DNA of 64,000 bases from a virus. The translations under genes and the position numbers were made by a program. Location of the stretch: the IMG/VR virus record IMGVR_UViG_3300031963_014654, positions 6,502 through 70,501 of that record, one strand, 5' to 3'. Under the pieces are notes generated by a model that worked only from the letters and a program-made list of their open reading frames with translations, had not been told where the DNA came from and made no database searches. Positions 40,182-56,093 of this stretch are shown here, piece after piece; positions within the stretch are counted from its first letter, which is position 1; the number at the start of each line of letters is the position of its first letter.

Positions 40182-40245
40182 TTAGTATTCGGGCGATGCT
40201 GGACCATAAAGCGAAATAAGTGTTGAACGAATGTTTTGGTATGGT

Positions 40246-40515: not shown

Positions 40516-40520
40516 TTTAT

Positions 40521-41444: not shown

Positions 41445-41459
41445 TATGGTTGTTGGTTG

Positions 41460-41840: not shown

Positions 41841-41843
41841 TTC

Positions 41844-42236
41844 TTAAATATTTACAGTTACAATTTTGTGATAGCCTCTTATTCTGTTAAAAAATGATTT
41901 TAAGCTCGGTTTTGGGTTTATGTATTGGTCTGCTCCCCATTCGTTATAAAAAATATCCAGCATTTGAATAATTCCTTCTCTTGAATTACGTTGTTCTACT
42001 ATATTATCCTTCCAATTTACATAAGAAAAAATGCTTTCGGAGCAAATAATAATTCCATACTTATCGTTATCAAATTCAAAACAATTGTATTGTCCTAAAT
42101 ATGGGCATGTAACAATACGAACGCGATTGCCTTTGTGCAAATTATTGATAAATGCAAATCGAGCATTGTTAATTATCCATTCTATTGTTTGGCTTTGCGA
42201 CCACAAATAGGATTGCTGAAATTTTATTTGTTTCAT
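41844..42236 (-). CDS. Hypothetical protein
   Basis: Likely start MKQIKF at 42236. Confidence 0.5.
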   Translation of the reverse strand: MKQIKFQQSYLWSQSQTIEWIINNARFAFINNLHKGNRVRIVTCPYLGQYNCFEFDNDKYGIIICSESIFSYVNWKDNIVEQRNSREGIIQMLDIFYNEWGADQYINPKPSLKSFFNRIRGYHKIVTVNI

Positions 42237-42237
42237 G

Positions 42238-42507
42238 TTATTCAAAAATATTTTTACTATGTGGTGAGTGAACAAAATTTTCGGCTGCTTTTTTTAACCA
42301 AGCATCTGTACGCCTTATTTCCTCCAATAATAGTTGTTTTTTGTATGCCGATGGTGGATTTCCTTTATCGTCTTTACCATAAAGGAAATAATCCATCAAT
42401 CGGTTTTTATAATCGCCAATATCCAACAAATCCTGTTGGTATATTGGCTTTGTATGGTGCTTTTTTACAAATGTAAAAAAAGGTAATGATTTATTCAATT
42501 CTCCCAT
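42238..42507 (-). CDS. Hypothetical protein
   Basis: 89-aa ORF. Confidence 0.55.
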   Translation of the reverse strand: MGELNKSLPFFTFVKKHHTKPIYQQDLLDIGDYKNRLMDYFLYGKDDKGNPPSAYKKQLLLEEIRRTDAWLKKAAENFVHSPHSKNIFE

Positions 42508-42518
42508 TTTTATTGAAT

Positions 42519-42815
42519 TTAATCGTTTAATAATTTATCGGTAAAGGCTTTATCGTTACCAAGGTAATTTACCCAATATCCGGATTGACCTTGTAATGCA
42601 AACTTTTTACGAACTTCATCGGATGAAGTATAGCATATTGGCCGCATTTCGGATTGTGTGCCTTGATATATCACCACTAAGTTTTTTTTAATGATTGCTA
42701 TCACAAAAAGCAAATCGCGGTTTTCGGCAAACATATCACCTTCCTTTAGTTCGGCAAAGGCATGGTTTGTATCCAATTGGTTTTTCTGAAAAGGATGTAC
42801 TGTTGATGCTTCCAT
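42519..42815 (-). CDS. Hypothetical protein
   Basis: 98-aa ORF. Confidence 0.55.
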   Translation of the reverse strand: MEASTVHPFQKNQLDTNHAFAELKEGDMFAENRDLLFVIAIIKKNLVVIYQGTQSEMRPICYTSSDEVRKKFALQGQSGYWVNYLGNDKAFTDKLLND

Positions 42816-42832
42816 TTTTTATGATTTATTGG

Positions 42833-43039
42833 TTAAATAAATTGTTTACGGTACAATTGCAAGCCATTTGTATCGATTGACATACCACATTTTTTGGTAA
42901 GATAATCTAACTTGCCCCAGCTTTTATTACCAAGTGGTTCGGCTTTGGTTAAATCGATTGCGCCTGTATTGGAAAAGTTTACTTTTTTTGCAGCAAGTGA
43001 TCTTATTGCTTTGTCGGGATTTAGTTCGCGTCCTTTCAT
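42833..43039 (-). CDS. Hypothetical protein
   Basis: 68 aa; LGNKSWGKLDYL motif. Confidence 0.55.
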   Translation of the reverse strand: MKGRELNPDKAIRSLAAKKVNFSNTGAIDLTKAEPLGNKSWGKLDYLTKKCGMSIDTNGLQLYRKQFI

Positions 43040-43045
43040 AAATTA

Positions 43046-43222
43046 TTAGTTGTTTTTTAAAATTGGTTGATTACCTGTTAAAATTGCTTTGTCGGACTTG
43101 TTTCCAACCCATTGATAGCCATCTTTATAGCTTACTTTGTGATTATCTTCGTATCCTTTACGAAGTAATGGTGTGGCTACTTGTGCGCAAGCAATACGCT
43201 GCTGAACTGAATTTTTGCTCAT
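43046..43222 (-). CDS. 58-aa hypothetical protein (not in track)
   Basis: MSKNSVQQRIACAQVATPLLRKGYED.. fills the gap between neighbours. Confidence 0.45.
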   Translation of the reverse strand: MSKNSVQQRIACAQVATPLLRKGYEDNHKVSYKDGYQWVGNKSDKAILTGNQPILKNN

Positions 43223-43271
43223 AAATGTTTTTTTAGTTTTGTTTTATGTTTTTACGAATATAGAACTTATC

Positions 43272-43466
43272 TTATGACTTTTGAAGAAATTTTATTTTCT
43301 TTTTTTCACCAATCATTGAATTATAGTCTAATTCAACTTTTAATGAATTAATTATTTTACCTGCCGTATTTGCAAGCTCTTTACCCATTTTCAAATCCAT
43401 TTTTTTTGTTTTCATTTGCTCATAATTATCAAGCAAACTAACTCTTAATTCTTCGATGTTTTGCAT
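43272..43466 (-). CDS. Small helical phage protein
   Basis: NIEELR..KELANTAGKIINSLKVELDY. Confidence 0.65.
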   Translation of the reverse strand: MQNIEELRVSLLDNYEQMKTKKMDLKMGKELANTAGKIINSLKVELDYNSMIGEKKKIKFLQKS

Positions 43467-44035
43467 AGTCTTTTTGTTTGGATTAATATTCTTTTAATTT
43501 CTAATAATTCTGGATTCTCCTTCAATTGATCCACGGTATATCCGTTTTTTTCCCTTAATAATTTACTTACATACCTATCCGCAATTTGCTCCCTTTTCGT
43601 CTTTTCTTTTTTGCTATCCCTTAAATTTATTTTTGCTCTGTTTTTTTTATTATAATCTTGATATGTTTTTTTGTTTTTGATATAATCATTTTTATTCCAT
43701 ACTTCGTTTTTTTGTTTCTTTTTACATGTAGGGCAATATTTAGCAATCAATATCCTATCAAACAATGAAGTTCCGCATCTCTTGCATAGGTTTTTAGCTT
43801 TTTTTTCTAAAATAATTTTTTCCTTTTTTTCACGATTTTCTTCTGCATTTTTAGAATGCCATATTTTAGAATTGTTACGATACCTTTTTAACTTTTCTGG
43901 ATTATTTAATAGCCAAATTTTATGATTAGCATATACGCATGATTTACAGCTACTTGTGTATTTCCCTTTTTTAATTTGAAATTCGGATATTTCTTTTTTA
44001 TCATTGCATTTAGTGCAAATCTTAAATTCAACCAT
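43445..44035 (-). CDS. Basic Zn-finger protein (homing-endonuclease-like N-terminus)
   Basis: KICTKC..KEISEF..CKSC; CKRCG..YCPTC; no clear HNH catalytic core. Confidence 0.6.
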   Translation of the reverse strand: MVEFKICTKCNDKKEISEFQIKKGKYTSSCKSCVYANHKIWLLNNPEKLKRYRNNSKIWHSKNAEENREKKEKIILEKKAKNLCKRCGTSLFDRILIAKYCPTCKKKQKNEVWNKNDYIKNKKTYQDYNKKNRAKINLRDSKKEKTKREQIADRYVSKLLREKNGYTVDQLKENPELLEIKRILIQTKRLCKTSKN

Positions 44036-44040
44036 AACGT

Positions 44041-44685
44041 TTAACCTTTATTTATGTTTTTACGAATATAGAACTTATCTCCCCAATGGCAATCGGTCAT
44101 TTTGCATTCGGCTGCTTCAAATCCATGTTCGGATAAAAAAGCATCAATTTCATGTACCAATGCACAACCTTTGTAAAGCTCCTGATCATTAACTTCGGTA
44201 TAAATGTAATTTATGTGCTTTAGGTTATTTTCCATGCCTTTTAATGCAAGCAATTCGGCACCTTGAATATCTATATTCAAAAAATCGTAATACTCCATAT
44301 CAATGCATCCATGTTCAATTATATCATCTGCGGTGATGGTAATCATTTCAATTGATTGCACATTTTGAACGGAAGGATGGTATTCCAAATGCTTATCGAG
44401 TGGCAAAAAGGATGAAGATTCGCCATTATTGTTGGTAATGTTGAATGTAACTGATTGAAGTGATTTATCACTTACACATGCTTGTATTGCAAATGCATGT
44501 GGGTTTGATTCGATGTGTTTTTGAAGTTGTTCGAAAATTTCGGGGATTGGTTCAATCCAAATTTGATTTTCAACTCCTTTATCCAGGTATTGTTGTGCCT
44601 CCTGCCCTGTATTGGCACCAATATGGAATACACCCTTGGGGCGTATTCCGTATTTATCTATAAGTGTTGCGAATGGTATAAGCAT
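44041..44685 (-). CDS. FkbM-family methyltransferase
   Basis: GVFHIGANTGQE, WIEP, SSSFL, FLNIDIQGAEL.ALKG, YTEV, WGD. Confidence 0.9.
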   Translation of the reverse strand: MLIPFATLIDKYGIRPKGVFHIGANTGQEAQQYLDKGVENQIWIEPIPEIFEQLQKHIESNPHAFAIQACVSDKSLQSVTFNITNNNGESSSFLPLDKHLEYHPSVQNVQSIEMITITADDIIEHGCIDMEYYDFLNIDIQGAELLALKGMENNLKHINYIYTEVNDQELYKGCALVHEIDAFLSEHGFEAAECKMTDCHWGDKFYIRKNINKG

Positions 44686-45083
44686 TATTTTTGCTCTCCT
44701 TTCATCATTTTTGCTGCTACAGCAAAAAATTCGCCTTTATCAATTGTAATTGATTGATTTTGGATTTCGTGCATTTTTTGTAAGATAATGTTAAAATCAC
44801 CAGAAACATTAATTTTGCAATCGTTTGCTTCGTTTAATTCAAATGATACACGTGCGGTAATTTTTGGACCGGATTGCATTTGACTTTCTCTAATTTTTTG
44901 TTCCAACTTTTCACTTTCTGCACCTGCAGTTCTACCGTGCAAATATGCTCCAATAATTTTTTTATCGGTTTCGGATGGTGCTGTTGGTTTAAATATTTTT
45001 ATTGATTTTTCTTTCGAAACACTTTTTGATTTACCTGCAGCCTTTTGGGGTGCTGTTTTTTTTGTGGTTGCTTTTTTTGCCAT
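44685..45083 (-). CDS. Hypothetical protein with basic N-terminus
   Basis: 132-aa coupled ORF. Confidence 0.55.
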   Translation of the reverse strand: MAKKATTKKTAPQKAAGKSKSVSKEKSIKIFKPTAPSETDKKIIGAYLHGRTAGAESEKLEQKIRESQMQSGPKITARVSFELNEANDCKINVSGDFNIILQKMHEIQNQSITIDKGEFFAVAAKMMKGEQK

Positions 45084-45087
45084 GATT

Positions 45088-45822
45088 TTATTTTTGTTTA
45101 TAGGTTTGAATTAATTGATTGATTTTTTCGGTATAATTTTTTGTATTGAAATGACTATTTGCATGAATGCGGTGGTCCACTAACTTTTGGTTTATGTTAG
45201 TGAATTTAGCATCGGTATAACGCATAATGCGTAGCCATAAATCATAATCTTCTATTCCATCAAGTTCGGGATTGTATGGAAATTGTTCCATTAAATTGGC
45301 ACGAATAAGTGCGCTGCAATTTACAATTGGGTTGTGGCCATTGTAGGCATCTTCTACTATTTTATCGTGCAAAAATGGGCGTGGGCGTGGATTTATTTCT
45401 ATTTCTTTGCTTTGTGCATCAATATAATAACAATCGGTACCAATAACATCGTATGCATTGGCGTATTTTAATTGTTCTTCCAGCTTTGTTGGATGCCATA
45501 CATCATCTGCATCTTGGATTGCAAACCATTGTGCTTTTGGAAGCGAATATAAATTTTCTGAATATTGTAGTAGCAAATTAGATATAAAATTTAATGCATC
45601 TGATTTATTATCACAAGTTCCCATTGTAAAATCTTTAATTTTACCTGGATTATTTAAACGATATTCATCAACAATTTTTTGAGTATTGTCGGTGCATCCG
45701 TTTAACGCAACAATAAGATTAAAATTTTGGTGGGTTTGGTTTAGAACGCTTTCAATAGCTTGCCTAATGTAGCGTTCGCCATTACGAACCGCTAAAAGCA
45801 CATATACATGATTATTTCCCAT
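45088..45822 (-). CDS. Glycosyltransferase family 2
   Basis: VRNGERYI..AIESVLNQT, GCTDNT, IQDADD..KLE.Q, EDYDLWLR; likely start MGNNH at 45822. Confidence 0.9.
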   Translation of the reverse strand: MGNNHVYVLLAVRNGERYIRQAIESVLNQTHQNFNLIVALNGCTDNTQKIVDEYRLNNPGKIKDFTMGTCDNKSDALNFISNLLLQYSENLYSLPKAQWFAIQDADDVWHPTKLEEQLKYANAYDVIGTDCYYIDAQSKEIEINPRPRPFLHDKIVEDAYNGHNPIVNCSALIRANLMEQFPYNPELDGIEDYDLWLRIMRYTDAKFTNINQKLVDHRIHANSHFNTKNYTEKINQLIQTYKQK

Positions 45823-45907
45823 TTTTTGTTTGTAAATTTTAGGCAATATTAAACCTTTATTTGTAATATGCAAACTTTATTTTAATTTACTTATTAACAA
45901 TTAAATG

Positions 45908-46696
45908 TTAATTACGGTAATAATTGGTTCCTTTTGCTGCTTTATCTTTATCTACAAATATAATTTTGGGCGTAAATGGTGGTTCTATTGCCCAACGCTG
46001 TTTAATGTATTCTTGGTTTTCCATCCAAAGTTCGTACATGTATGGGTTAAGTTTACCAGGTTCGTGCTCGCAATAATGGTAGGTTGGTGGTAGAATTTTC
46101 ACCAAAGGTTCATTATTACACACAAATTTATTAATTGCTGATTCATCGTGCCAAATTGGTGTAATTCCAGCAAATTTATCGTTTTGAATGTATAAAAACA
46201 TTAATGCGCACATAGCTTTAAAATTATACGTTTGACCTCCATAAAATCCGCCTCCTACATAGATTGTTGGCTTGTGAGCAAAGCATGATGAATTGGCGTT
46301 TGTTTCGAATGGTGCTGCATCTGTTCTGTTTATGTATGCGCCATGTGCAACACAAACAATATGGTGCTTACATATTAAAGGAGTGATTTCGGAAGCAAAA
46401 TAAGCATCGGCATCTATTGCAAAACAATGTGTAAATTTTTCGTAGTGATTAAAATCGGAAAGGTATTTTGAATAAAAATACGAACGCCACATGGATGCTT
46501 CTGGGAATGGCTTATGCTCTACTTCGATGTATTCAATATCTCTTTTTGTTTCGGGCAAAGGTGTTGCTATATCGGAAACAAATATAACGTAAACAACTTC
46601 CTGCTGTGGCAAAAAATATTGATCGGCCGATTCGATTAATTTTGGAAGAAACTCGGTGTATTTGCCGGTTGCTGTAATAAATAGTGCTATTTTCAT
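45908..46696 (-). CDS. Family 6 glycosyltransferase (ABO/alpha-1,3-Gal(NAc)T-like)
   Basis: IALFITATGKY..F, FAIDAD, PFE, YVGGGFYGG, WHDESAINK. Confidence 0.85.
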   Translation of the reverse strand: MKIALFITATGKYTEFLPKLIESADQYFLPQQEVVYVIFVSDIATPLPETKRDIEYIEVEHKPFPEASMWRSYFYSKYLSDFNHYEKFTHCFAIDADAYFASEITPLICKHHIVCVAHGAYINRTDAAPFETNANSSCFAHKPTIYVGGGFYGGQTYNFKAMCALMFLYIQNDKFAGITPIWHDESAINKFVCNNEPLVKILPPTYHYCEHEPGKLNPYMYELWMENQEYIKQRWAIEPPFTPKIIFVDKDKAAKGTNYYRN

Positions 46697-47253
46697 TTTA
46701 TTAAAGAAAGTGTTTTTGGTATTCCGTTTTTAAAAAAGAATGTAGTAGTCCAACCTGTATAAGTAAATCCGTATTTGTCGGGTTCGTGTTGGTATGTTTC
46801 TATTCGTTGAAAACTATTCATTAAATTTTTTCCTGGTGCATAATACTCGCGTTCGGAATTATCCAATATTAAAACTCCATTTTTGGCTAAATATGGCAAT
46901 GCGGATTGAATACATGCTGCACGATTGCGCCCATCTACCAAAATAATATCGTATTTATCCCCAATTTTAGCTGCTTCGGCAATAGCATCGTGGTAAGATT
47001 GCTCCCTGCGCATTAACATACCATCTTGAGGCTTTGCTAAAAAACTTTTAGCTTGTTTGGTAATCTCATCCCACCATTGTGTATCGTGCTCCACAGAATG
47101 CAGCACTTTTACATTTTTTTGCTTTAAAAACCAAATGGTGCTTGCTCCCATTCCGTATTCGAAAATACGCAAATCTTTGCCATTATCAATTATTTTTTGA
47201 AGTATTCGATTAGCTTCTTCGGTAAGCCATGGTTCGGTGCGTAGTTGGTCCAT
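46693..47253 (-). CDS. Class I SAM-dependent methyltransferase
   Basis: PWLT, IFEYGMGASTIW, SVEHD..W, YDIILVDGRNR, GVLILDNS. Confidence 0.85.
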   Translation of the reverse strand: MDQLRTEPWLTEEANRILQKIIDNGKDLRIFEYGMGASTIWFLKQKNVKVLHSVEHDTQWWDEITKQAKSFLAKPQDGMLMRREQSYHDAIAEAAKIGDKYDIILVDGRNRAACIQSALPYLAKNGVLILDNSEREYYAPGKNLMNSFQRIETYQHEPDKYGFTYTGWTTTFFFKNGIPKTLSLIK

Positions 47254-48091
47254 TTGAGTTTAAATTTATATGTGATATTGGAGTTTGTATTTTGCTAATT
47301 GTATTGTGGCTCAAATGTAAGTAAATATTTGTTGTTTTTACATTGTTGTGCCCTAATAATCGTTGTATTAAATTAATATCTGTACCATATTCTACCATGT
47401 GCGTAGCACTTGTGTGGCGAATAAGGTGAGCATATATTCGCTTATTGCAAATTCCGGCTTTATCGGCCAATTGTTTTAAAACTTGGTTTACGCTGCTTTC
47501 GGTATATTGAATATCAAATTGGCCATTTAACACATACGTTTGGGATTTGTATTGATAATAATATGTTTCCAACAATTTTATTAAATCGGGATCAAGTGGA
47601 ACTTGCCTATCTTTTTTGCCTTTTGCTTGAATGATATTTATTATCATTCTACTACGATCAATGTGTTGCCATTTAAGGTTTATTAATTCGGAAACACGTA
47701 AGCTGCAGGAGTAAAGTAGCGATAATATTACTTTGTGCTTTAGGTTTGCACATACATCAAACATTTTTTGTATTTCCTGTACCGACAAAACGATTGGTAA
47801 TTTTTTGTCTTTTTTAGAAAAAGGAATTTTTTCTAATTTAATGGGCATTCCAACTGTTATTGAATAAAAGGATTTTATTGCACATAGTTTATGGTTACGT
47901 GTATTTATTGTTGGAAACGTTAATAGCCATTCTTTAATTTTTTGCGTTGAAATTGCTTTTGGCTCTGTTTCGCTGCTAAAATATTTTAAGAATGTTCCAA
48001 CCGAACACAAATAGTTTTCTTGCGTTCGCTCACTTGGATATTTTAACTTACAATCTGTCGAATATTTATCATACCATTTTCGAAATTCCAT
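47210..48091 (-). CDS. Tyrosine recombinase (candidate non-canonical integron integrase)
   Basis: Intact R-K-HxxR-H-Y set: LRVSE, AKGKKDR, HLIRH, LLGH, TNIY; N-terminal SAM-like YPSERTQENY. Confidence 0.92.
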   Translation of the reverse strand: MEFRKWYDKYSTDCKLKYPSERTQENYLCSVGTFLKYFSSETEPKAISTQKIKEWLLTFPTINTRNHKLCAIKSFYSITVGMPIKLEKIPFSKKDKKLPIVLSVQEIQKMFDVCANLKHKVILSLLYSCSLRVSELINLKWQHIDRSRMIINIIQAKGKKDRQVPLDPDLIKLLETYYYQYKSQTYVLNGQFDIQYTESSVNQVLKQLADKAGICNKRIYAHLIRHTSATHMVEYGTDINLIQRLLGHNNVKTTNIYLHLSHNTISKIQTPISHINLNSNGPTTHRTMAYRRS

Positions 48092-48130
48092 TTTGGACCT
48101 CCTTGTTTTATTGTTGTTTTAGACTGTTTT

Positions 48131-48150
48131 ATCTATATAGTAGTTAGGTG
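48131..48150 (+). other. attI-like primary recombination site (G|TTAGGTG at 48143)
   Basis: GTT core about 50 bp upstream of the recombinase start; the sequence after it is the reverse complement of CACCTAAC at the other end of cassette 1. Confidence 0.6.
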
Positions 48151-48181
48151 CAAGTTTTAAAACCCTACCCACCTGTGTTTA

Positions 48182-49042
48182 TCAAACTAAGTGGTTAAAA
48201 ATGTGTTCTATTACAGGTACAGTCCATCCGTTTCCTAGTAAATGGTATCTTTTACCACTTGCCACACCATTTGTATAATCTAAAGTAACCCCTTGTAATA
48301 TCTCACACTCATTTTCTGTTAATTTTCTAAGCCCTTTTTTCATCTTAACTATATTAGTAGCTGACCTATCGCATCTAAACGAATGTGGTGTTATGCAATT
48401 AGCTCTATTGTATTTTATTGATTTATTATAAAAATCAACAACTTCAATAGTATTTCCACTTTCTAAATATCTACAATTATCGTAATGTTTTATCTGATGT
48501 TCTTTACAGTAATATTTTTCATCTACATTTTCTAACAATACATTATCTATATAATATTGCTTAGTTATTATGTTTTCTAAAGGAATATTTGTCCAATAAT
48601 ATCTTTCTCTATTTTGTGCGGTAAAATTATTTGAATTTATTAAAACGCCTTTTACTCCTAAAAAATTATCTAAATCCAATTTACTTTTTTCTTTCATTTT
48701 TACATTTTCTAATAAAAAGTATTTAGGATTAGTTTCTTTTAAAATTCTTAGGTATTCATAAAATAGTTTTGATTTATCACCGTCTAATTCCTTACGTTCA
48801 AATTTTAAACTTGAAAAATCCTGACAGGGTGAGCCTCCAATAAGTAAATCAATTTTAGGTAAATCAATTGACTTTACATCAATAACGCTTCCGATATGTT
48901 TTGTATTTGGATAGTTTTTTTTAGTTATGAAAATAGCATCTTTATCAATTTCACTCGCAAAATAATTATCTACTTTGATTCCTAAATTATTTAAAGCTAT
49001 TTGTCCACAACTCATTCCATCAAATAAACTAAGTACATTCAT
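48182..49042 (-). CDS. C5-cytosine DNA methyltransferase (cassette 1)
   Basis: SLFDGMSCG, GGSPCQ, LLENV, QNRERYYW, LGNGW. Confidence 0.92.
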   Translation of the reverse strand: MNVLSLFDGMSCGQIALNNLGIKVDNYFASEIDKDAIFITKKNYPNTKHIGSVIDVKSIDLPKIDLLIGGSPCQDFSSLKFERKELDGDKSKLFYEYLRILKETNPKYFLLENVKMKEKSKLDLDNFLGVKGVLINSNNFTAQNRERYYWTNIPLENIITKQYYIDNVLLENVDEKYYCKEHQIKHYDNCRYLESGNTIEVVDFYNKSIKYNRANCITPHSFRCDRSATNIVKMKKGLRKLTENECEILQGVTLDYTNGVASGKRYHLLGNGWTVPVIEHIFNHLV

Positions 49043-49106
49043 TTTGTTTTAATTTTAAATTATATGTTTTACATTCCAATTTGCACTCCTTCGTTTTAAA
49101 ACCAGA

Positions 49107-49163
49107 CACCTAACCGCACCTAATAAACAGCAAGCCGATTTATTAGCTGCAAACCGTTAGCAG
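49107..49163 (+). repeat. attC-like site 1
   Basis: CACCTAAC..gcacctaataaa/tttattagctgc..aaaccGTTAGCAG. Confidence 0.75.
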
Positions 49164-49169
49164 AAAGCA

Positions 49170-49871
49170 CTACACTACTGCTAAAATTGAACTTTCGATT
49201 ATTTCTTGACATAATTCTTTTGGTATTTTTGAACGGTTAAAACTTCCTTTTTTGCCTTGCGTTCCTGTTTTCGATCCTCTTGGTGCAGGTTGATGATGAC
49301 AATTTTTGTTTCCGTTGTGGCACATTGGTCTTGGTTGCCATACTTCGCTATTTGTCCATATATCCGTTGGCTTTGCTCTATCGTCGCCATAAGTACAATA
49401 CCAAACCGTATGCCTTTTAAATCTTTGCATAAATGGCATTTTACGCATCATTCCTCTTGGGTTTTCAATAAAGAATACCATTTTAGGATTAATCAAAAGC
49501 CATTCATCGATTAGGCTAATAAAGTGTTGGTTTACTGCATCGCATTTTTTAGCGTATTCGCTTTTTGGATCTGTTCCATTTCGGTGTGTGCTTATTGCTG
49601 CAATAGTGTAAGTTGTGCAATCAGGAGAAGCCCAAACAACATCTGGAATAAATGGCACATCTTTAGTTTGTAATTCTTCAATATCAATGGCTAAATCTAT
49701 TTTATCAAACTTTTGCCAATCAATACTAAAAACATTCATCCCTTTTGCTTCGGCTACACTTCCAACGGATCGAGAACCAGCGAATAATTCTACTAAATTA
49801 CCCGTGCCATCTGCTAACATCGGTTTGGCAAAATTGCCGTTTGGTGCTTCTATTGAACTTTTATCTATCAT
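49170..49871 (-). CDS. C5-type DNA methyltransferase, divergent (cassette 2)
   Basis: ELFAGSRS, VWASPDCT, FIENP, YCTYG..KPTDIW, RSKIP. Confidence 0.8.
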   Translation of the reverse strand: MIDKSSIEAPNGNFAKPMLADGTGNLVELFAGSRSVGSVAEAKGMNVFSIDWQKFDKIDLAIDIEELQTKDVPFIPDVVWASPDCTTYTIAAISTHRNGTDPKSEYAKKCDAVNQHFISLIDEWLLINPKMVFFIENPRGMMRKMPFMQRFKRHTVWYCTYGDDRAKPTDIWTNSEVWQPRPMCHNGNKNCHHQPAPRGSKTGTQGKKGSFNRSKIPKELCQEIIESSILAVV

Positions 49872-49938
49872 TTGAACATTTGTTTTTTAATTAAACTTTT
49901 GGGAACGGCAACTTCGCCAAGCCGATAACCGTTATGTG
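49811..49938 (+). repeat. attC-like site 2
   Basis: CTGCTAAC + 23-bp arms atcggtttggcaaaattgccgtt/aacggcaacttcgccaagccgat + aaccGTTATGTG. Confidence 0.8.
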
Positions 49939-49942
49939 CCAT

Positions 49943-50467
49943 TTAAAGAGCGACACTACTCTCAACTTCATTGCCCCAAACATCCCAACCATCGGGTTTT
50001 ATTCGGGCAAATAGTTCAATCCTGTCTTTTCCGAAAATCTCTATCATCTCTCTTATCTCTTTTGGTTTTTCTGAATGTCTTAATTTTTTTGAACTTATCT
50101 GAATAAGTGTTGGTATAGTTTTCCGTTTTGGGAATTTAGGTAAATTACCTTTTCTGCCAACTAATAGAAATTCAGTTCTGTGATGGAATCCGTATAAGCA
50201 CAATCCATTCATTTTATCCCAAGTAATAGTTCTTTGATAGTTAAATCCCCATTCTTCCATAACTTCAAATGCTTGTCTTAAATATCCTTGTGTTGTCCAC
50301 AAAAACAAAATACTATCATCTTTTGCCAACATTTCCACATTCAAATTTTTTATATCCTCTATTTTCATCATCGGATATGAATGTTCTATCTGATTTGGTC
50401 TTGTTTTTCTTTTAAACATTTTTACATCCCAAGCAGGGTCGGCATATATTACATCGTATTTCTTCAT
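49943..50467 (-). CDS. MT-A70-family adenine methyltransferase (cassette 3)
   Basis: YDVIYADPAW, LFLWTT, WGF.Y, TEFLL, HSEKP, IELFAR, GWDVWGNE. Confidence 0.9.
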   Translation of the reverse strand: MKKYDVIYADPAWDVKMFKRKTRPNQIEHSYPMMKIEDIKNLNVEMLAKDDSILFLWTTQGYLRQAFEVMEEWGFNYQRTITWDKMNGLCLYGFHHRTEFLLVGRKGNLPKFPKRKTIPTLIQISSKKLRHSEKPKEIREMIEIFGKDRIELFARIKPDGWDVWGNEVESSVAL

Positions 50468-50497
50468 ATTTCTAAATTAAATTCGTAAATAAAAAAC

Positions 50498-50595
50498 GGC
50501 ACATAACACGGTATATAAGCAAGTTTGCCATTAAGTTTGTGGGTAATTTGAAACATTCTGCAAGGCAAACCTGCTCATATACCCATCCGTTATAT
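50498..50595 (+). repeat. attC-like site 3
   Basis: GGCACATAAC + 20-bp arms ggtatataagcaagtttgcc/ggcaaacctgctcatatacc + catccGTTATAT. Confidence 0.8.
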
Positions 50596-51009
50596 CCCCT
50601 TAATCAAATCGGCTACATTTTTCCAATCATTTGGTGATGCTGTGCTTTTGTTTTTATATAATTGGCGCAATACATTTAAAGTGTTATTAACCCTATCTTT
50701 TTTGGTATTATTGCTTTCATTATTTTTAACAGGCAAATTATCTGTTAAATCCCATTCTATGCAAATTCTACCGGTAACGCTGCATTTCTTTTCACCTTTT
50801 TCATAAATAACGCCTAATTCTCTTAACTCTGTGAACCTTGCTCTTGCTTGTGAAAAAATATTTTTCGAATTTAAACTATTTTGCATTGCCTCCGAACTTG
50901 TGCAAGGAGCATGTTGATATATCAATTCATAAACTTCTAGCCTGCGTTTTGTAAGCAAACCTTCGTTTTTTATTTGATTGTAACAATCAATGGATGTTTG
51001 TCTTGCCAT
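50590..51009 (-). CDS. Winged-helix-like DNA-binding protein
   Basis: VYELI..PCTSSE..RARFTELRELGVI....KC.VTGR. Confidence 0.6.
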   Translation of the reverse strand: MARQTSIDCYNQIKNEGLLTKRRLEVYELIYQHAPCTSSEAMQNSLNSKNIFSQARARFTELRELGVIYEKGEKKCSVTGRICIEWDLTDNLPVKNNESNNTKKDRVNNTLNVLRQLYKNKSTASPNDWKNVADLIKGI

Positions 51010-51013
51010 TTTT

Positions 51014-51313
51014 TTATTTATTTTGATTGTTATTTTTCATTTCGGCCATTTCGTTAAGTTTTTGCTGGAACTTACTTACTTTTAATACCTTTTTTGGCGT
51101 TTCTGTGGCTGCAGGTTCATTTTCTTGTTCCTGGTTAATTTTCCATACATAGTATGTTTTAAAATCGCTATCGGAAGTATTTAGTATGTTGCACCAAAAT
51201 TGAGCAATCCATTTGAACTTGAATTTTGTTGGATTGTGATTTTTGGGCTTACAAAACAACCAAAAACGTACTGATCCGTATGTGAATATTCCGTTGTATT
51301 TTATTATGTGCAT
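51014..51313 (-). CDS. Hypothetical protein
   Basis: 99-aa ORF. Confidence 0.5.
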   Translation of the reverse strand: MHIIKYNGIFTYGSVRFWLFCKPKNHNPTKFKFKWIAQFWCNILNTSDSDFKTYYVWKINQEQENEPAATETPKKVLKVSKFQQKLNEMAEMKNNNQNK

Positions 51314-51331
51314 ATTTTACAATTTTTATAT

Positions 51332-51460
51332 AAAAACAAAGCATCCCGAAACGGCTAGGTAAACAATAGTGGAAATGGGAAACCACACATGAAAACCATC
51401 GCCAATTTCGGGATGCTTCTTATTTCGTTACAGTTCAAATTTCCCATTTTTTGAATGTTT
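51332..51460 (-). ncRNA. Structured leader RNA or attenuator candidate containing a 30-codon ORF (51355..51447)
   Basis: 13-bp perfect inverted repeat aagcatcccgaaa/tttcgggatgctt around 54 nt, followed by a T-rich tract; directly downstream of promoter 51469-51499. Confidence 0.45.
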
Positions 51461-51468
51461 AACCGTGG

Positions 51469-51499
51469 CAAATATAATGGTTTATTTTATACTTGCAAA
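51469..51499 (-). promoter_or_regulatory. Bacteroidota-type -33/-7 promoter
   Basis: TTTG-N19-TATATTTG. Confidence 0.75.
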
Positions 51500-51661
51500 T
51501 TTATTTTATAAACACTTATGCCATGCCCGATTTTTTCAAATCAAGCTCATACTGCAATTTGCGGTATTTGTGGCCTTGGTGTATATTCCAAATGCTTAAT
51601 GCAAAAAATGCTACTGTTAGCAATGTAATTGCTGTTTGCATTCGTTTATGTTCGAGTAAAT

Positions 51662-51901
51662 TTACCATCTTTTTGCTGGGCAATATTGTTTTTTTAATGT
51701 TTGCTTTTCACTTAATATACAACCACATAATTTTATTACTTTGCCATTGTAATTAACATAGTTACCTGTTATTGGTGTTCCGCACCATTTACCATTTTTG
51801 AAGCTACATGTATTGCATTGTGCTTTACGAAAATTAATAACGGCTTGACTTGCTAATTCATCATTAGTAAGTACTTTAACTATGTTGGCTATTGTTCCCA
51901 T
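51662..51901 (-). CDS. Small Cys-rich protein
   Basis: R..QCNTC..CG..CGC.L..K......CP..RW. Confidence 0.65.
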   Translation of the reverse strand: MGTIANIVKVLTNDELASQAVINFRKAQCNTCSFKNGKWCGTPITGNYVNYNGKVIKLCGCILSEKQTLKKQYCPAKRW

Positions 51902-52133
51902 TGCGGCTTTTCTTTTCGGCTTTGCGTTTGCTTAAATAGCTAAATAACGATGCAACAGCAACACTACTACCTGCCAACAGTCCTACATCTTTAATTATTA
52001 CGCCAATAAATTCGGCAACTTCAGTTGATTCGGGAATATTTATCATAGCAATTAAGCCTGTGGTAATTGAACTTAACAATCCAGATACTCCAGGATGCTC
52101 AATTATTGCATTGGCAAGTTGTTTAAAAATCAT
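51876..52133 (-). CDS. Two-TM membrane protein (holin-like)
   Basis: Likely start MIFKQL at 52133; two hydrophobic helices and a basic tail. Confidence 0.55.
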   Translation of the reverse strand: MIFKQLANAIIEHPGVSGLLSSITTGLIAMINIPESTEVAEFIGVIIKDVGLLAGSSVAVASLFSYLSKRKAEKKSRNGNNSQHS

Positions 52134-52154
52134 ATTTTTGTTTTGCGTTTGATG

Positions 52155-52186
52155 CAAAGTTAAGTATTTTTTTATTTGTTTACAAA
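52155..52186 (-). promoter_or_regulatory. Bacteroidota-type -33/-7 promoter
   Basis: TTTG-N20-TAACTTTG. Confidence 0.7.
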
Positions 52187-52492
52187 TATTTCGTAAATGG
52201 GCACCAAATCAACAGATAATTTGTTTTCGTCATTTATTTTTTTTAACCCTTCGCGAATTTCGTTTAATTCTAATTCACTAAATTCTATTAAAAAAGTTGC
52301 TTTTGATCCTTTTTCGTTCCATCTTAATTGTGGTCCAAATTCAGTTATTTCAAAATCTTTTAATTCTTTTTGTGTTAATTGGCATTTTTTTGTAATGTCT
52401 TTATTGATAATCATTTGTGAGTAATTACCTTCTTTTTTCAATACGCCTGGAATCATTAAACGATCCAACAATGTTAATTTGATTTTTTTCAT
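52172..52492 (-). CDS. Hypothetical protein
   Basis: 106-aa ORF. Confidence 0.6.
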   Translation of the reverse strand: MKKIKLTLLDRLMIPGVLKKEGNYSQMIINKDITKKCQLTQKELKDFEITEFGPQLRWNEKGSKATFLIEFSELELNEIREGLKKINDENKLSVDLVPIYEIFVNK

Positions 52493-52515
52493 TTTTTTTG
52501 GTTTTTTATTTATAA

Positions 52516-52734
52516 TTAATAATTTTTAAAACTATCTTCTTTTTCTTCCATATTAGCCCACTCTATTCCTTTTTCCTTTATTTTACCGGTTTGTTTTTCA
52601 ATAGATATGGATTCATCAATTTTTTTATTGAGCTTGTTTTCTTCCAACCAATCCTCAAGATGCTTTTCGTTTTCAAACAATTGGCTCCCATTCATTCCTT
52701 CTGGTGGATTTGGTATTGTTAATAGTATTTTCAT
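52516..52734 (-). CDS. Hypothetical protein
   Basis: 72-aa ORF. Confidence 0.5.
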   Translation of the reverse strand: MKILLTIPNPPEGMNGSQLFENEKHLEDWLEENKLNKKIDESISIEKQTGKIKEKGIEWANMEEKEDSFKNY

Positions 52735-52736
52735 TG

Positions 52737-53303
52737 TTATTTTTTAGTTAAAATAAAATGTAAATCATCAACTACATTCCAATAATGACTGCCTGCAAAT
52801 TGCTTTGCCTCTAATGATCGTGCAACCCAATTACCATTAACTGCTTCGCCAACAACATAATCAAAATCGCATTTAACATTGTAATGGTCTAATTTATTTA
52901 CTTCTCTCCATGCTTTGTTAAAATACAATACAGTTTGTGCTGGAATAAATCTACGATGTGTTGGATCTTGAAATGCTCTTGTACTTGTACAGTTTGGGAA
53001 AATTAATGTTACTTTGCCTCCTGGTTTTAAAATTCGGTAGCATTCATCAATAAATGCAAATAGTTTATCTTTTCCATTTATAAACTCCATGGGAATATGT
53101 TCAATAAAATGTGATGAAAATATTTCATCTACCGTATTATCTTCGAATGGATAAGGGAAGTTGTTAAACAAATCGTGTTTAATATCACAATCGCCTGCTA
53201 TATCAACGCCAATAAATCCTGGTTGCTTGTTTTGGCCACATGCTAAATCAACTCTTAATGGACCTTCTGGTTGTACTGTTTTAATGCTTTTTTTCTTTGT
53301 CAT
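52737..53303 (-). CDS. SAM-dependent methyltransferase (type 11-like)
   Basis: VDLACG, GVD, PFEDNTVDEI.SSHFIEH, ECYRILKPGG, DPTH. Confidence 0.9.
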   Translation of the reverse strand: MTKKKSIKTVQPEGPLRVDLACGQNKQPGFIGVDIAGDCDIKHDLFNNFPYPFEDNTVDEIFSSHFIEHIPMEFINGKDKLFAFIDECYRILKPGGKVTLIFPNCTSTRAFQDPTHRRFIPAQTVLYFNKAWREVNKLDHYNVKCDFDYVVGEAVNGNWVARSLEAKQFAGSHYWNVVDDLHFILTKK

Positions 53304-53315
53304 ATTTTTTTATTT

Positions 53316-54029
53316 TTACCAAGTTATATCTGAATTTAAGTCATAATGACCTACTTTAACCGAACAATCTATTGCGCAACGGTATCCATGTTTTCGAGCA
53401 TCGGCCCAAAAATATAAATCTTGCGTTCCAATACCTTGCCCTTCAATGCCTGTTAATGTTTTGAACCATGGCCTTCTTAGGTTTGAATCTTTAAACATTG
53501 ATATTCTCCATAAATTAAAGCCCATGCCTGTTCCGCAGCATTCAACTAATCCGCCATTAATATCTGGTGGTTGTGGTCTAAAATTTATGTTTGGATCTTT
53601 TGCATCGCCCCATATTTGTGGCACGCCTCCTTCTCCTTTGGTCCAATACAATCCTCCAATACATGATAAATGTGGATTTTTTTCCATTGCTTGTATTAAT
53701 CGAAGTAAACCATCTGCAGGTGGAATATTATCATGTTCAATTGTTAGTATGTATTCCCATTGCGATAATTCTGGATGTGATAATACTTGCTCTATTGCAG
53801 ATGAAAATGCCTCGCCTACTTCCAATCCAATAGCAGCCATTTTAAATGAACCGTTGTTTGGTGGAAACATTAATGAGCAATGCGATAAATAAACTTTTGT
53901 TGGAATTGTTTTTGCGGCTGGAATAATCATTACAACACGTTGTTGTTTCCATGAACCGCCTTCAATTATTCTTTTTTGTGAATTAACAAGATTTTGATTG
54001 TGAATCCCACTTTCTATTCCTACTATCAT
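53316..54029 (-). CDS. Glycosyltransferase (GT2-like)
   Basis: YILTIEHDN, IGGLY, GMGFNL..F, PWF, QDLYF, VKVGH. Confidence 0.75.
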   Translation of the reverse strand: MIVGIESGIHNQNLVNSQKRIIEGGSWKQQRVVMIIPAAKTIPTKVYLSHCSLMFPPNNGSFKMAAIGLEVGEAFSSAIEQVLSHPELSQWEYILTIEHDNIPPADGLLRLIQAMEKNPHLSCIGGLYWTKGEGGVPQIWGDAKDPNINFRPQPPDINGGLVECCGTGMGFNLWRISMFKDSNLRRPWFKTLTGIEGQGIGTQDLYFWADARKHGYRCAIDCSVKVGHYDLNSDITW

Positions 54030-54049
54030 ATTTCATTTTTTTATAATCG

Positions 54050-54081
54050 CAAATATATAGTATTATTTTTTATCCAACAAA
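54050..54081 (-). promoter_or_regulatory. Bacteroidota-type -33/-7 promoter
   Basis: TTTG-N20-TATATTTG. Confidence 0.7.
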
Positions 54082-54082
54082 A

Positions 54083-56092
54083 TTATCTTGATATAAATGT
54101 CATCATAGGCATAACTGTTGCTGTCATACCCATTGCTGTTATGTTTACAGCACTTGGTAGTTGTGAACCACCATAAGCAGCCGAACCTGTTGATGTTGCA
54201 ACGCCCCAAGGAATTTTAACTAAAGTGTTTGCTGTTCCTGTGTAAGCTGCGGTACTTGAACCTAATCCCCCTGCACTTACAGGTGCCGCCATTACATTAC
54301 CACCTAACGCAAAAGCCATTCCACCGTTGGCGCTTGATGAACTTTGTCTTTGATGAATACCCACCCAATAAATCCCTTCACTCATACTCATAGTGTTGCC
54401 AAAACCAAAACTCATAATTCTATTACCTGCTGTACCAAATAAAGATTGTGCTTGTGCTGTTGTGGTTGCATTAAAGTTAGAATATGTGTATCCTCCTGCT
54501 GTTCTATAAGACGCTGGACAATTTATAGTAAAACTTACAGAACTACCTGTTAAACCAACCGAATAAGAACTTGAACTAATAAGGCTTAATGTTCCTGCAT
54601 TATTTGAAAATAGACCAAATTGATGTGTAACAGTATGGCTAAATGCAACCGATGAACTAACAACCGAAGCTGTCATTAATTGTTCTAATTGATTAAATTC
54701 AATAGGTTCCAATAATAAAACAGGGAAATACCATGCAGATGCACTTGTTACTCCTTGCGCCCCTAAAGTTTGCACCCCTGTTGATGCAGGATAGTAAGGG
54801 ATATGAGTTTTTATTGGTTGTTTATCTACTGTTAAAGTAATACTATTCCCATTTATAGATTGGCTCATTCTTATCCCATCCTCTCCAACAAAAACGATTT
54901 GACCACCTGCACCAGCTACCGTTCCTGTTGTTCCTGCTGTATTTCCAAATGTAGAAACACCAACATTTATAGCATTAAATGATGCCGTAATTGTTGATCC
55001 GCTTAATCCAAAGGATAAATTATTTGAATTGGCAAAAGATACATTTGCAAGTGCTGCATTTGTTGATCCTGCACTAAATGTTACATTTCCTGCTGCTGCA
55101 TTTGGTGCGTCAATAACAACACTTCCATTGCTTACTCCAACTGATACTGCACCTTGCCCTTTGAATATAAGATTACTTAATGCAATTGTTCCAGATGAAC
55201 TATTTGTAGTATTGCTTGTTGCGTATGCTGTAAGTTGTGTTAATCCGCCACCTGCTGCAACTGATATGGCTAATCCATTGCTATTTAATGTAACGCTTGC
55301 ATTTGTAGCACTTGTTCCTGTGCCTGCATAACCTGCTGCATTAATAGAAATTCCACTACTATTTACAGTCCATGTTACATTGGTTTGGGCTGTATTTAAA
55401 CCAACTCCATCATTTGATGCACGTGCTGTTGTTAAATAGTTTGTTTGTACGCTTGCTGTTACAATTCCATTTGTTTCTAATCCAAATGTTACACCATTTA
55501 AGTTTGAAAAAGTTACATCCGACCTGTTGGAAGATAATGTGCCTGCACTTACTTTTATTGCTGATAATAATCCATTTGTTGTAACAGGAGCAGCTACCGA
55601 AACAGCTAATCCATTGCTATTTAATGTAACGCTTGCATTTGTAGCACTTGTTCCTGTGCCTGCATAACCTGCTGCATTAATAGAAATTCCGCTACTATTT
55701 ACAGTCCATGTTACATTTGTTTGGGCTGTATTTAAACCAACTGCAGGTTGTGTGCTTTGTTGTGTTATACCATTGTGCGATGCTGTAATAACAGAACTAT
55801 TGCTCATTCCAAATGTGATTCCATTTTGGTTTGAAAATAATACAGAATTTGTGCTTCCTGCTGTTTGTGTTCCTGCTATTAATATATTTCCACCATCACC
55901 TGCACCACCAGCATTAGCCGATAATACAATTGTGGAACCTGTAATGGATGCTGTTAAATTACCTGCAGCGGATAAATAAATATCACCACCGGTAATTGAT
56001 GTTCCACCTGCTGTATTTCCTGTAAGTAAAATACTTTGCACCATTTGCACGCTTTGCGATGCCTGTATGTTTCCAAATTCTGATAGTGCCAT
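54083..56092 (-). CDS. Fibre/spike structural protein
   Basis: 669 aa, very rich in S/T/G/N/A; repeated F.N.NG.TFG...TAS units. Confidence 0.7.
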   Translation of the reverse strand: MALSEFGNIQASQSVQMVQSILLTGNTAGGTSITGGDIYLSAAGNLTASITGSTIVLSANAGGAGDGGNILIAGTQTAGSTNSVLFSNQNGITFGMSNSSVITASHNGITQQSTQPAVGLNTAQTNVTWTVNSSGISINAAGYAGTGTSATNASVTLNSNGLAVSVAAPVTTNGLLSAIKVSAGTLSSNRSDVTFSNLNGVTFGLETNGIVTASVQTNYLTTARASNDGVGLNTAQTNVTWTVNSSGISINAAGYAGTGTSATNASVTLNSNGLAISVAAGGGLTQLTAYATSNTTNSSSGTIALSNLIFKGQGAVSVGVSNGSVVIDAPNAAAGNVTFSAGSTNAALANVSFANSNNLSFGLSGSTITASFNAINVGVSTFGNTAGTTGTVAGAGGQIVFVGEDGIRMSQSINGNSITLTVDKQPIKTHIPYYPASTGVQTLGAQGVTSASAWYFPVLLLEPIEFNQLEQLMTASVVSSSVAFSHTVTHQFGLFSNNAGTLSLISSSSYSVGLTGSSVSFTINCPASYRTAGGYTYSNFNATTTAQAQSLFGTAGNRIMSFGFGNTMSMSEGIYWVGIHQRQSSSSANGGMAFALGGNVMAAPVSAGGLGSSTAAYTGTANTLVKIPWGVATSTGSAAYGGSQLPSAVNITAMGMTATVMPMMTFISR
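55269..55742. repeat. 138-bp internal direct repeat in the fibre gene
   Basis: 55269-55406 vs 55605-55742, 2 mismatches; encodes GLNTAQTNVTWTVNSSG..LNSNGLA. Confidence 0.9.
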
Positions 56093-56093
56093 G

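Follow-up and report, generated by a model that had tools for sequence, protein, structure and literature searches.

Can a phage carry a gene-cassette system that works like an integron? The question is raised by a locus of the virus record IMGVR_UViG_3300031963_014654, which is 70,501 bp long and rated complete by CheckV. The window, that is, the whole stretch of 64,000 nucleotides (nt) analyzed here, corresponds to bases 6502 to 70501 of this record. Between 47210 and 50595, it holds the gene of an Xer-like tyrosine recombinase, a simple attI-like site, and an array of three DNA methyltransferase genes, each with one imperfect hairpin bounded by TAAC and GTTA on its upstream side. On the evidence, the locus is likely to be an integron-like platform of gene cassettes that a phage carries and, most probably, runs with its own recombinase. 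Two defining features of integrons fail here, namely, the insertion specific to integron integrases (IntI) and the gene orientation. Because the IntI insertion is missing and the cassette genes face the recombinase, the locus is integron-like in its working and is not a classical integron.

Organization of the array

The original prediction, a note made from the sequence alone, described a recombinase, a GTT site at 48143, and three hairpin-ended units. All of these are present and are listed below, with open reading frames (ORFs) in parentheses.

47210 to 48091, minus strand: Xer-like tyrosine recombinase of 293 amino acids (aa), with PF00589 and PF13495
48126 to 48150, minus strand: attI-like simple site, hairpin-free, reading TAAC, then TACTATATAGATAAAAC; its AAC is at 48143 to 48145
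48143 to 49158, minus strand: cassette 1, a C5 cytosine DNA methyltransferase (ORF 48182 to 49042) and hairpin site 1
49107 to 49163, minus strand: attC-like site 1, 57 nt, consisting of TAAC, an unpaired GGTT (4 nt), an imperfect stem-loop, and GTTA
49156 to 49933, minus strand: cassette 2, a phrog_757 DNA methyltransferase (ORF 49170 to 49871; alternative start at about 49820) and site 2
49811 to 49938, minus strand: attC-like site 2, 128 nt, with the first ATG of the cassette 2 ORF in its loop
49931 to 50591, minus strand: cassette 3, an MT-A70 N6-adenine DNA methyltransferase (ORF 49943 to 50467) and hairpin site 3
50498 to 50595, minus strand: attC-like site 3, 98 nt, at the distal end of the array
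50590 to 51009, minus strand: backbone gene of 139 aa, phrog_1123 (E = 1e-11); the TAA of the outermost TAAC box serves as its stop codon

The ends of each unit were complementary to each other. In cassette 1, GTTAGGTG (48143 to 48150) is complementary to CACCTAAC (49107 to 49114) over 8 nt. In cassette 2, GTTAGCAGA..GCAC (49156 to 49170) is complementary to GTGC..TCTGCTAAC (49805 to 49819) over 9 (+4) nt, and in cassette 3, GTTATGTGCC (49931 to 49940) is complementary to GGCACATAAC (50498 to 50507) over 10 nt. These are the end complementarities that had been predicted, and all were found in their places. In addition, the flank preceding the attI-like AAC can pair with the first bases of the cassette beside it. 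The outermost TAAC box has no partner box elsewhere in the window, and thus the array ends at 50595.

Every gene around the array is on the minus strand, and the order of transcription is the 139-aa gene, the MT-A70 gene, the phrog_757 methyltransferase gene, the C5 methyltransferase gene, and the recombinase gene. The recombinase had been described as diverging from its site; this is true of its position only, because the cassette genes share its strand and are read toward it. In integrons, genes are read away from attI with attC on their 3' side and are driven by a promoter at the integrase end, whereas all three window genes are read toward the recombinase. The cassette 1 protein matched PF00145 (E = 4e-39), TIGR00675, and phrog_116. 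The cassette 2 protein matched phrog_757 (E = 1.4e-26) and no Pfam family, and the cassette 3 protein matched PF05063 (E = 2.6e-29) and phrog_359.

Structure of the hairpin sites

We computed the DNA folding of both strands at the three sites. The folding energies of the minus and plus strands were −10.4 and −5.6 kcal/mol for site 1, −19.2 and −17.0 kcal/mol for site 2, and −19.0 and −13.5 kcal/mol for site 3. The minus-strand z-scores were −4.47, −2.5, and −3.65, respectively, compared with about −1.9 for the plus strand, and none of 200 shuffles folded as well as the minus strand of site 1 or site 3. Thus, the minus strand folds better at all three sites, which bears out the predicted bias toward the bottom strand. 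No structure was found by DNA folding at 48092 to 48181 around the attI-like site (z-scores of +1.0 and +0.4). The simple site next to the 5' end of the recombinase gene is therefore hairpin-free; it reads TAAC, then TACTATATA, and its AAC lies 51 nt upstream of the recombinase start codon.

A custom covariance model (R1) was built from 54 sites of other viruses and window site 2, and positions 40000 to 58000 of the window (18 kb) were searched with it on both strands without filters. The top three matches were the three window sites: site 2 (105.7 bits, E = 2.5e-21; this site was in the seed), site 3 (44.8 bits, E = 2.9e-8; not in the seed), and site 1 (23.8 bits, E = 1e-3, minus strand only). 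The next match scored 11.2 bits (E = 0.48), the plus-strand versions scored 9.4 and 5.5 bits, and there was no match beyond 50598. R1 thus singled out just the three window sites and did so on the minus strand alone. With default filters, R1 gave no match in the window, its own seed site included, which was attributed to filter loss. A hairpin scanner (AAC, at most 6 nt, a stem with G-T pairs allowed, at most 2 nt, GTT; score of at least 12) found no further strong site in the 64-kb window.

The sites of the window and its relatives form one family. On the gene-sense strand, the general form is 5'-RYYYAAC, 4 to 5 unpaired nt (G G/T W W), stem, loop, stem, 0 to 2 nt, and GTTRRRY-3'; the minus strand of the window sites reads RYYYAAC, 4 to 5 unpaired bases starting with GG, stem, loop, stem, and GTTRRRY. 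Like attC sites, they are imperfect palindromes between RYYYAAC and GTTRRRY with conserved structure and variable sequence and length. The lengths ranged from about 45 to 290 nt, and 72 of 147 sites were 120 to 129 nt long. The asymmetric spacer is conserved, with 4 to 5 nt after AAC (in 100 of 124 unique sites, these begin with GT or GG) compared with 0 to 2 nt before GTT.

Pairing within the family was examined in an alignment of 55 sites (A2). Compensatory changes were seen in 12 of the 13 consensus pairs; only 13 inner pairs were counted, as the outer stem registers were mixed by gap placement. The paired cells amounted to 89.7% compared with 54% in shuffles. The covariation score was 0.772 compared with 0.193 in shuffles, 0 of 500 of which reached it, and sliding the partner by 1 to 3 columns gave at most 0.177. 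Loops of the 120- to 130-nt class share an A/T-rich motif near TTAAATTWA (A2 columns about 97 to 110, about 20 to 35 nt before the 3' arm; about 49845 to 49860 in window site 2). This motif may be a promoter, a module for translation starts, or a binding site for a protein.

Linkage of the sites to the recombinase in related viruses

The comparative loci, given L numbers here, came from scans of viral contigs, a genome collection, and cultured-phage genomes. A protein database held 4,916 proteins similar to the recombinase at E values up to 1e-30 among 5,995 candidates, and the best 120 were 68 to 81% identical, the window's own entry apart. The viral contig scan gave 80 loci with a recombinase 55 to 77% identical to that of the window.

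The scanner sites were counted on both sides of the recombinase gene in these 80 loci. Upstream of the gene, 147 sites were found on its strand in 411 kb, compared with 32 on the opposite strand; downstream of it, the two strands carried 27 and 23 sites in 609 kb. This is an approximately 8-fold enrichment upstream of the recombinase. Among the 147 upstream sites, 124 were unique, and several loci overlap or are near duplicates. A site was present within 3 kb in 37 of the 43 loci having at least 3 kb of upstream sequence and within 1.5 kb in 41 of the 56 loci having at least 1.5 kb. The same layout recurs in the related viruses with different gene content, and the invariant gene set that would have spoken against cassette exchange was not seen.

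The attI-like sequence is also conserved. In 42 of the 80 loci, its consensus, TAAC followed by TACTATATGTA, lies no more than 300 nt upstream of the recombinase. The spacing from AAC to ATG was 50 to 67 nt in most of these 42 loci, and 51 nt, the spacing in the window, was the commonest. In 10 of the 80 viral contigs (among L006 to L085), the contig stops 10 to 279 nt upstream of the recombinase start. Such stops suggest that assemblies routinely break at the arrays and that arrays are underrepresented in contig collections.

The inverted repeats of 8 to 15 nt that flank each gene could also be the termini of small transposon-like elements, or the hairpins could be chance intergenic palindromes. 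We regard this as very improbable. Beyond TAAC and GTTA, the repeats vary from unit to unit, and no transposase is present. The sites are strongly enriched, strand specific, and linked to one recombinase family.

Pairing of unit ends and anatomy of the units

The flank pairing of the window cassettes was compared with that in the relatives. Of 66 consecutive pairs of sites, 25 matched across the gene at 7 or more of the 8 nt beyond the triplets. At the same threshold, the two flanks of the same hairpin matched in 0 of 124 sites, and random pairs matched in 23 of 5,000. The last site matched the attI-like flank at this level in 12 of 33 loci. Between consecutive pairs that scored low, a further site probably escaped detection. 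Pairing across the gene is what a circular unit cut at the triplet would leave behind; it would not be expected of a plain RNA hairpin or terminator.

The 66 well-bounded units in relatives had a median body of 376 bp (range, 33 to 2,268 bp). The longest ORF was on the recombinase strand, which is the folding strand, in 63 of 66 units and on the other strand in none. The stop codon was the TAA of the TAAC box in 14 of the 63 units, and by the longest-ATG rule, 26 of the 63 cassette ORFs start within the hairpin loop. In many sites, an ORF opened by the loop ATG crosses the 3' arm and the GTT box and enters the cassette. Three "empty" units with bodies of 33 to 35 bp (e.g., L001, about 6200 to 6235) contain little beyond two complementary ends. 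In L038 (2372 to 3886), a 122-nt site with a short body occurs three times in one array, alternating with other units; the repeat resembles the unit duplication of large chromosomal integrons.

These data bear on the proposal that the hairpins are RNA-level elements of a polycistronic mRNA, acting in stability, processing, or translation control, with the gene content varying by homologous recombination between hairpins. Promoter/stem-loop modules have been proposed as recombination sites in T4-type phages. In its favor, the folding strand is the mRNA sense strand, G-U pairs are fully acceptable in RNA, and 26 ORF starts lie within loops. We nevertheless consider this proposal rather unlikely. 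It is opposed by flanks that pair across the gene and never within the hairpin, by the invariant AAC and GTT triplets outside the stem, and by a terminal partner site that is hairpin-free. Moreover, no intrinsic-terminator-like site was found at 46500 to 52500, where shuffles averaged 3.8, and no Rfam match was found at E values up to 1 at 46500 to 52000. The number of sigma-70-like promoters (28 compared with 29.2 expected) was uninformative, and the promoter type may not be that of the host.

Unit-level differences between related genomes

To follow single window cassettes, homologues of the cassette 2 protein were searched, giving 42 loci, two of which (L180 and L181) carried it at 97% protein identity. 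Cassette 2 in these two loci was 92 to 93% identical to that of the window in nucleotide sequence. The homology starts within the hairpin loop (49901 and 49874) and ends at AAC (49154 and 49156), and the rest of L180 and L181 is unlike the window, with the exception of one site-like stretch. After the shared AAC, the window continues with site 1 and the C5 methyltransferase, L180 with a different short hairpin and another unit, and L181 with an attI-like AAC, then TACCGTATATAAG (about 4660 to 4700), and an unrelated nonrecombinase gene. The L181 sequence, which has no recombinase within 4 kb, may be a relic or a displaced attI. The upstream flanks of cassette 2 also differ among the window, L180, and L181, and the L181 flank is complementary to the start of its upstream neighbor.

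The other two cassettes have relatives in other contexts as well. A homologue of the MT-A70 gene in L175 (78% identical) likewise forms a hairpin-bounded unit, but its boxes and its hairpin differ from those of the window. At 82.6% identity, window site 3 resembles a site of L041 in another context, and C5 methyltransferase cassettes homologous to cassette 1 are found in the arrays of relatives, e.g., L041.

Cultured phages provided the clearest differences. A tblastn search found recombinases 30 to 33% identical to that of the window in Polaribacter phages Leef_1, Freya_1 to Freya_10, and Danklef and in Cellulophaga phage Ingeline, and Leef_1 and Freya_10 have hairpin sites upstream of the recombinase gene. 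The records of the ten Freya isolates range from 43,978 to 48,920 bp, with the differences just upstream of the gene annotated as integrase, and the flanks compared (3.9 kb before and 5.2 kb after) are 99.6 to 100% identical. Relative to Freya_10, 4,942 bp are missing in Freya_1, 4,097 bp in Freya_2, 3,195 bp in Freya_5, about 900 bp in Freya_8, and one 304-bp unit in Freya_9. Freya_6 has a 441-nt insert that is absent from Freya_10 and ends with ...CCAAC right before the attI-like sequence. In all six length variants examined (Freya_1, Freya_2, Freya_5, Freya_6, Freya_8, and Freya_9 compared with Freya_10), the junctions are at AAC. The junctions of Freya_2 and Freya_9 share AAC only, a 3-nt identity that argues against homologous recombination between hairpins, and the Freya_5 junction shares a similar box of 13 nt. 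The authors of the Freya genomes read the recombinase gene as an integrase and a sign of a temperate lifestyle (PMC8776804), and the words "cassette," "hairpin," "indel," and "insertion" are all absent from the main text of that paper.

Taken with the ends of cassette 2 and a metagenomic contig switch at 49931, the Freya_2 and Freya_9 junctions place the crossover at the conserved triplet to a resolution of 3 nt. Ten public metagenome runs contained at least half of the sampled words of 46700 to 51300, and the assembled contigs of four runs were aligned at 90% likeness. In run X3, the word depth of the phage backbone was about 17, and the bins over sites 1 to 3 reached 120, 476, and 475, that is, 7- to 28-fold over the backbone. 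Such depth over the sites indicates that site sequences are common to more abundant genomes in the same samples. A 63.6-kb contig of X3 ends at 49025, and the array is split into pieces ending at sites. Contigs leave the window sequence at 49110 (before), 49162 to 49163 (behind), 49931 (before), 49936 (behind), and 50585 (behind), and all of these switch points are in or beside AAC/GTT boxes. The pattern fits sites shared among many co-occurring arrays.

The summed contig depth over the sites was also examined at 49010 to 50703 in runs X3, X10, and X12. Contig joints with a side of less than 30 or with intervening sequence not known were disregarded, among them a skip from 48159 to 49097 (937 nt, one contig, side of 23), and the uncovered parts in X10 to X12 were not used. 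A skip from 49992 to 50457 at a depth of 553 was rejected, as it appears to reflect a more abundant genome with a diverged homologue.

The recombinase lacks the IntI insertion

The recombinase contains PF00589 (E = 2e-36) and PF13495, the SAM-like and catalytic domains of simple tyrosine recombinases. The top NCBIfam match was XerA_Arch (184.5 bits, under the cutoff of 220), and the XerA, XerD, XerC, and integron-integrase models scored about equally, all below their cutoffs. The integron-integrase model TIGR02249 scored 149 bits in hmmscan compared with a cutoff of 265. It matched in two stretches (90.2 and 61.5 bits), at profile positions 10 to 177 and 239 to 314, with positions 178 to 238 skipped. 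In the control genomes searched, there was no TIGR02249 match above the cutoff.

The skipped part was examined against a known structure. Where VchIntIA (IntI4, 2a3v) has 66 residues, the window recombinase has 23. The predicted structure (mean predicted local distance difference test score of 75.6) shows a helix at residues 168 to 181, a coil at 182 to 197, and no extra helix in the insertion region, and its closest folds are XerA (5hxy) and IntI4 (2a3v), nearly tied. Thus, the recombinase fails the defining test of integron integrases, as it has no IntI-specific insertion. The I2 helix within this insertion is presented as an integron-integrase innovation for single-strand recombination (PMC7790495), and the insertion is described as "not fully conserved" in an integron-like subgroup (PMC8138268). 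Residues R132, K157, H222, R225, H248, and Y257 are invariant in 27 relatives, and this Arg-Lys-His-Arg-His-Tyr catalytic set predicts a competent Xer-like enzyme.

Arrays without a recombinase and the choice between enzymes

Arrays of this kind also occur apart from a recombinase gene. When 10,705 phage genomes were screened with IntegronFinder, temperate phages yielded three complete integrons, and 17 clusters of attC sites lacking an integrase (CALIN) were reported as well (Qi et al., 2023; PMC9892861). One of the clusters, in Polaribacter phage P12002L, comprised two methyltransferase cassettes and two attC sites with no integrase, and one P12002L attC site recombined with attI1 under IntI1 on the bottom strand only (PMC9892861). 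That paper treats phage attC sites as components of bacterial integrons, and "Xer" has no occurrence in its main text. We found at least 12 sites of the window type in the P12002L genome (L086), with the gene-sense strand being the minus strand, at about 29050 to 32930 and 38030 to 40950, between small genes and four annotated methyltransferases; the site used by IntI1 may be among them. R1 gave only one weak match in P12002L (25.2 bits, plus strand); as the model was built from the 110- to 130-nt class, it detects short or divergent sites poorly. The P12002L array ends, past its last methyltransferase, with ...CCTAAC, followed by unstructured sequence.

Several observations weigh against a cassette platform run by the adjacent recombinase. 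No recombinase homologue was found in the P12002L genome, and among 47 loci with homologues of cassette 2 or 3, none has a recombinase homologue within 4 kb. Of the 56 loci with 1.5 kb or more of upstream sequence, 15 had no site within 1.5 kb at the scanner threshold. The recombinase lacks the I2-helix insertion that integron integrases reportedly need for folded attC sites, and no conserved bulged G or T (extrahelical base) is evident in the 55-site consensus. Catalysis of unit recombination by the window recombinase is something that we infer, and the strongest evidence of rearrangement comes from the Freya phages, whose recombinase is only 31% identical to that of the window. The metagenomic evidence consists of contigs, not raw reads, and shows presence, not events. 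The Freya_8 junction shares 28 nt, and thus homologous recombination between similar sites is possible there, as the RNA-level proposal supposes. The folding of the sense strand with tolerance of G-T pairs suits an mRNA structure equally. Finally, the scanner demands a stem and rewards G-T pairs, and the pairing percentages and the ratio of G-T to A-C (263:44) are therefore partly built in; the enrichment and strand counts are an unbiased control for these pairing levels.

The main rival, sustained by the arrays without a nearby recombinase, is that the recombinase does another job, such as lysogenic integration or Xer-like multimer resolution, and that a different enzyme moves the units, for example, a host or coinfecting recombinase or a host integron integrase. 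The use of a P12002L site by IntI1 (PMC9892861), the reading of the cultured relatives' gene as a temperate-phage integrase (PMC8776804), and the nearness of the recombinase to XerA, XerC, and XerD as much as to IntI are all in keeping with it. On the other side, in most relatives (37 of 43) the array lies directly beside the recombinase gene, the hairpin-free AAC site is conserved at a fixed 50 to 67 nt from the recombinase start, and all of the Freya rearrangements involve the attI-like site. Prophages with this enzyme appear to be rare, as recombinases more than 60% identical were found in only two contigs of metagenome-assembled genomes (MAGs) among 185,579 species-representative genomes. 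In addition, classical integrons are almost unknown in Bacteroidetes according to the IntegronFinder 2.0 preprint. We therefore judge the rival unlikely, if less so than the RNA-level proposal, and continue to favor a platform run by the adjacent recombinase.

Bacterial relatives and comparison with known systems

The search of the 185,579 genomes also showed how far the system extends beyond phages. After the two MAG contigs, the next recombinases were at most 46% identical. Pedobacter glucosidilyticus DSM 23534 (L101) has five R1 matches of 37 to 85 bits beside the recombinase gene. A Melioribacteraceae MAG (L102, 3462 to 8769) has six R1 matches, with the array upstream on the recombinase strand as in the phages. 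The recombinases of both are 42 to 44% identical to that of the window and lack the IntI insertion. That of L101 has 481 aa, is 42% identical over the Xer-like part, and has an N-terminal extension of about 200 aa. The L101 array (9347 to 16892) comprises six chained units with near-identical 124-nt sites; among its seven cassette proteins, five are without a Pfam match and one carries PLD-like and helicase-associated domains. Thus, the Pedobacter array shares with the window the site family, the chained end complementarity, and the insertionless recombinase, but it lies downstream of the recombinase, and its genes have the classical attC polarity, antisense to the folding strand. R1-positive sites beside recombinases were also seen in genome-collection contigs L089, L092, L094, and L106 (36 to 65% identical in the set including L102). 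XerD-annotated genes beside tetX, catB, and other resistance genes are reported in Chryseobacterium and other Bacteroidota, with no sites described in the passages on these genes (PMC11194056).

The window array was compared with integrons, above all the sedentary chromosomal ones. Both combine a recombinase gene and a simple site beside it with an array whose units mostly hold a single gene, and both show imperfect palindromes of variable length and sequence with conserved AAC and GTT and cassette-specific end complementarity. In both, one strand folds better, junctions lie at the triplet, and duplicated and empty units occur. In contrast to integrons, the enzyme here has no IntI insertion, a lopsided spacer of 4 to 5 compared with 0 to 2 nt is seen and no conserved extrahelical bases are evident, the genes are on the folding strand and face the recombinase, and the carrier is a virus. 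The P12002L CALIN has the same type of site on the gene-sense strand between DNA methyltransferase genes, but the window array has a linked recombinase and an attI-like site.

Xer enzymes have known roles in mobility. XerC and XerD integrate the Vibrio cholerae CTX phage via a hairpin of single-stranded phage DNA. Xer/pdif resistance modules are described on Acinetobacter plasmids (PMC7399989). The window system resembles both in having an Xer-type enzyme without the I2 helix, and it resembles pdif modules in having single genes bounded by recombination sites. However, the CTX and pdif systems use host XerC/XerD and dif-like sites of 28 bp, whereas here a single phage recombinase is linked to long-loop hairpins of 47 to 130 nt and to an array. 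In the literature searched, in which subscription journals were largely uncovered, no description was found of an insertionless Xer-like recombinase linked to such phage arrays, and no published account was found of arrays of the Pedobacter type.

Cassette cargo

The window cargo consists of three DNA methyltransferases, each of a different family. In the relatives, 53 distinct proteins from well-bounded units were searched against Pfam. Ten of them matched DNA-methyltransferase families (four C5, four N6/N4, and two Dam), two matched a TET-associated glycosyltransferase, and single proteins matched PAPS reductase, DUF4326, and SNF2/helicase domains. No Pfam match was obtained for at least 34 of the 53, and many of the unknown proteins carried by relatives are small. 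The cargo appears to be an exchangeable set of DNA-modification functions, probably with other counterdefense functions too, and by swapping cassettes, the phage can probably alter how it is protected against host restriction.

Discussion

The original prediction was an integron-like system that actively captures and shuffles cassettes. The layout and the mobility of the units agree with the first part, but the enzyme is not IntI and the gene orientation is inverted. As for activity, mobility is supported for cassette 2 and in the cultured relatives, and by extension the system would be active in this very phage.

The following mechanism would account for these features. The gene-sense strand (the minus strand of the window), when single-stranded, would fold at a site, such that the AAC and GTT boxes form one recombinase-binding duplex and the stem base forms a second, and the lopsided bulge between the two duplexes would mark the strand. 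The recombinase would then cut at AAC and exchange strands with another folded site or with the double-stranded attI-like site. As a result, a unit would be excised as a circle, or a circle would be inserted beside the recombinase gene, and the junction would presumably be resolved by replication, as in integrons. Because the genes are on the folding strand and are read toward the recombinase, each hairpin precedes its gene on the 5' side, and a Pc-type promoter at attI cannot drive the genes. Expression would instead have to come from upstream phage transcription, possibly with signals in the loops.

On balance, we lean toward a broader view, in which Bacteroidota phages and some host chromosomes run a separate integron-type lineage with a compact Xer-like recombinase lacking the I2 helix. 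This lineage could be the ancestral state of integrons or an independent invention, and in phages it would have been turned round, with its genes on the folding strand, and would serve as an exchangeable bank of antirestriction and other counterdefense genes. If so, cassettes are captured at folded DNA sites without the IntI-specific domain, which bears on the origin of integrons from Xer-type recombinases. Surveys that require IntI, such as those of the IntegronFinder type, would class such systems as orphan attC clusters or miss them. Whole-unit differences are already present among the cultured Polaribacter phages Freya_1 to Freya_10, and the system is therefore directly testable.

Bacterial chromosomal integrons store anti-phage defense cassettes (10.1101/2024.07.02.601686), and the phage arrays would be a viral mirror image of these integrons. 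Because most of the cassette proteins have no known family, the arrays mark candidate counterdefense genes. Phages would gain a dedicated, site-specific means of swapping single accessory genes, and the exchange of methyltransferases could account for fast shifts in host range in the face of restriction systems.

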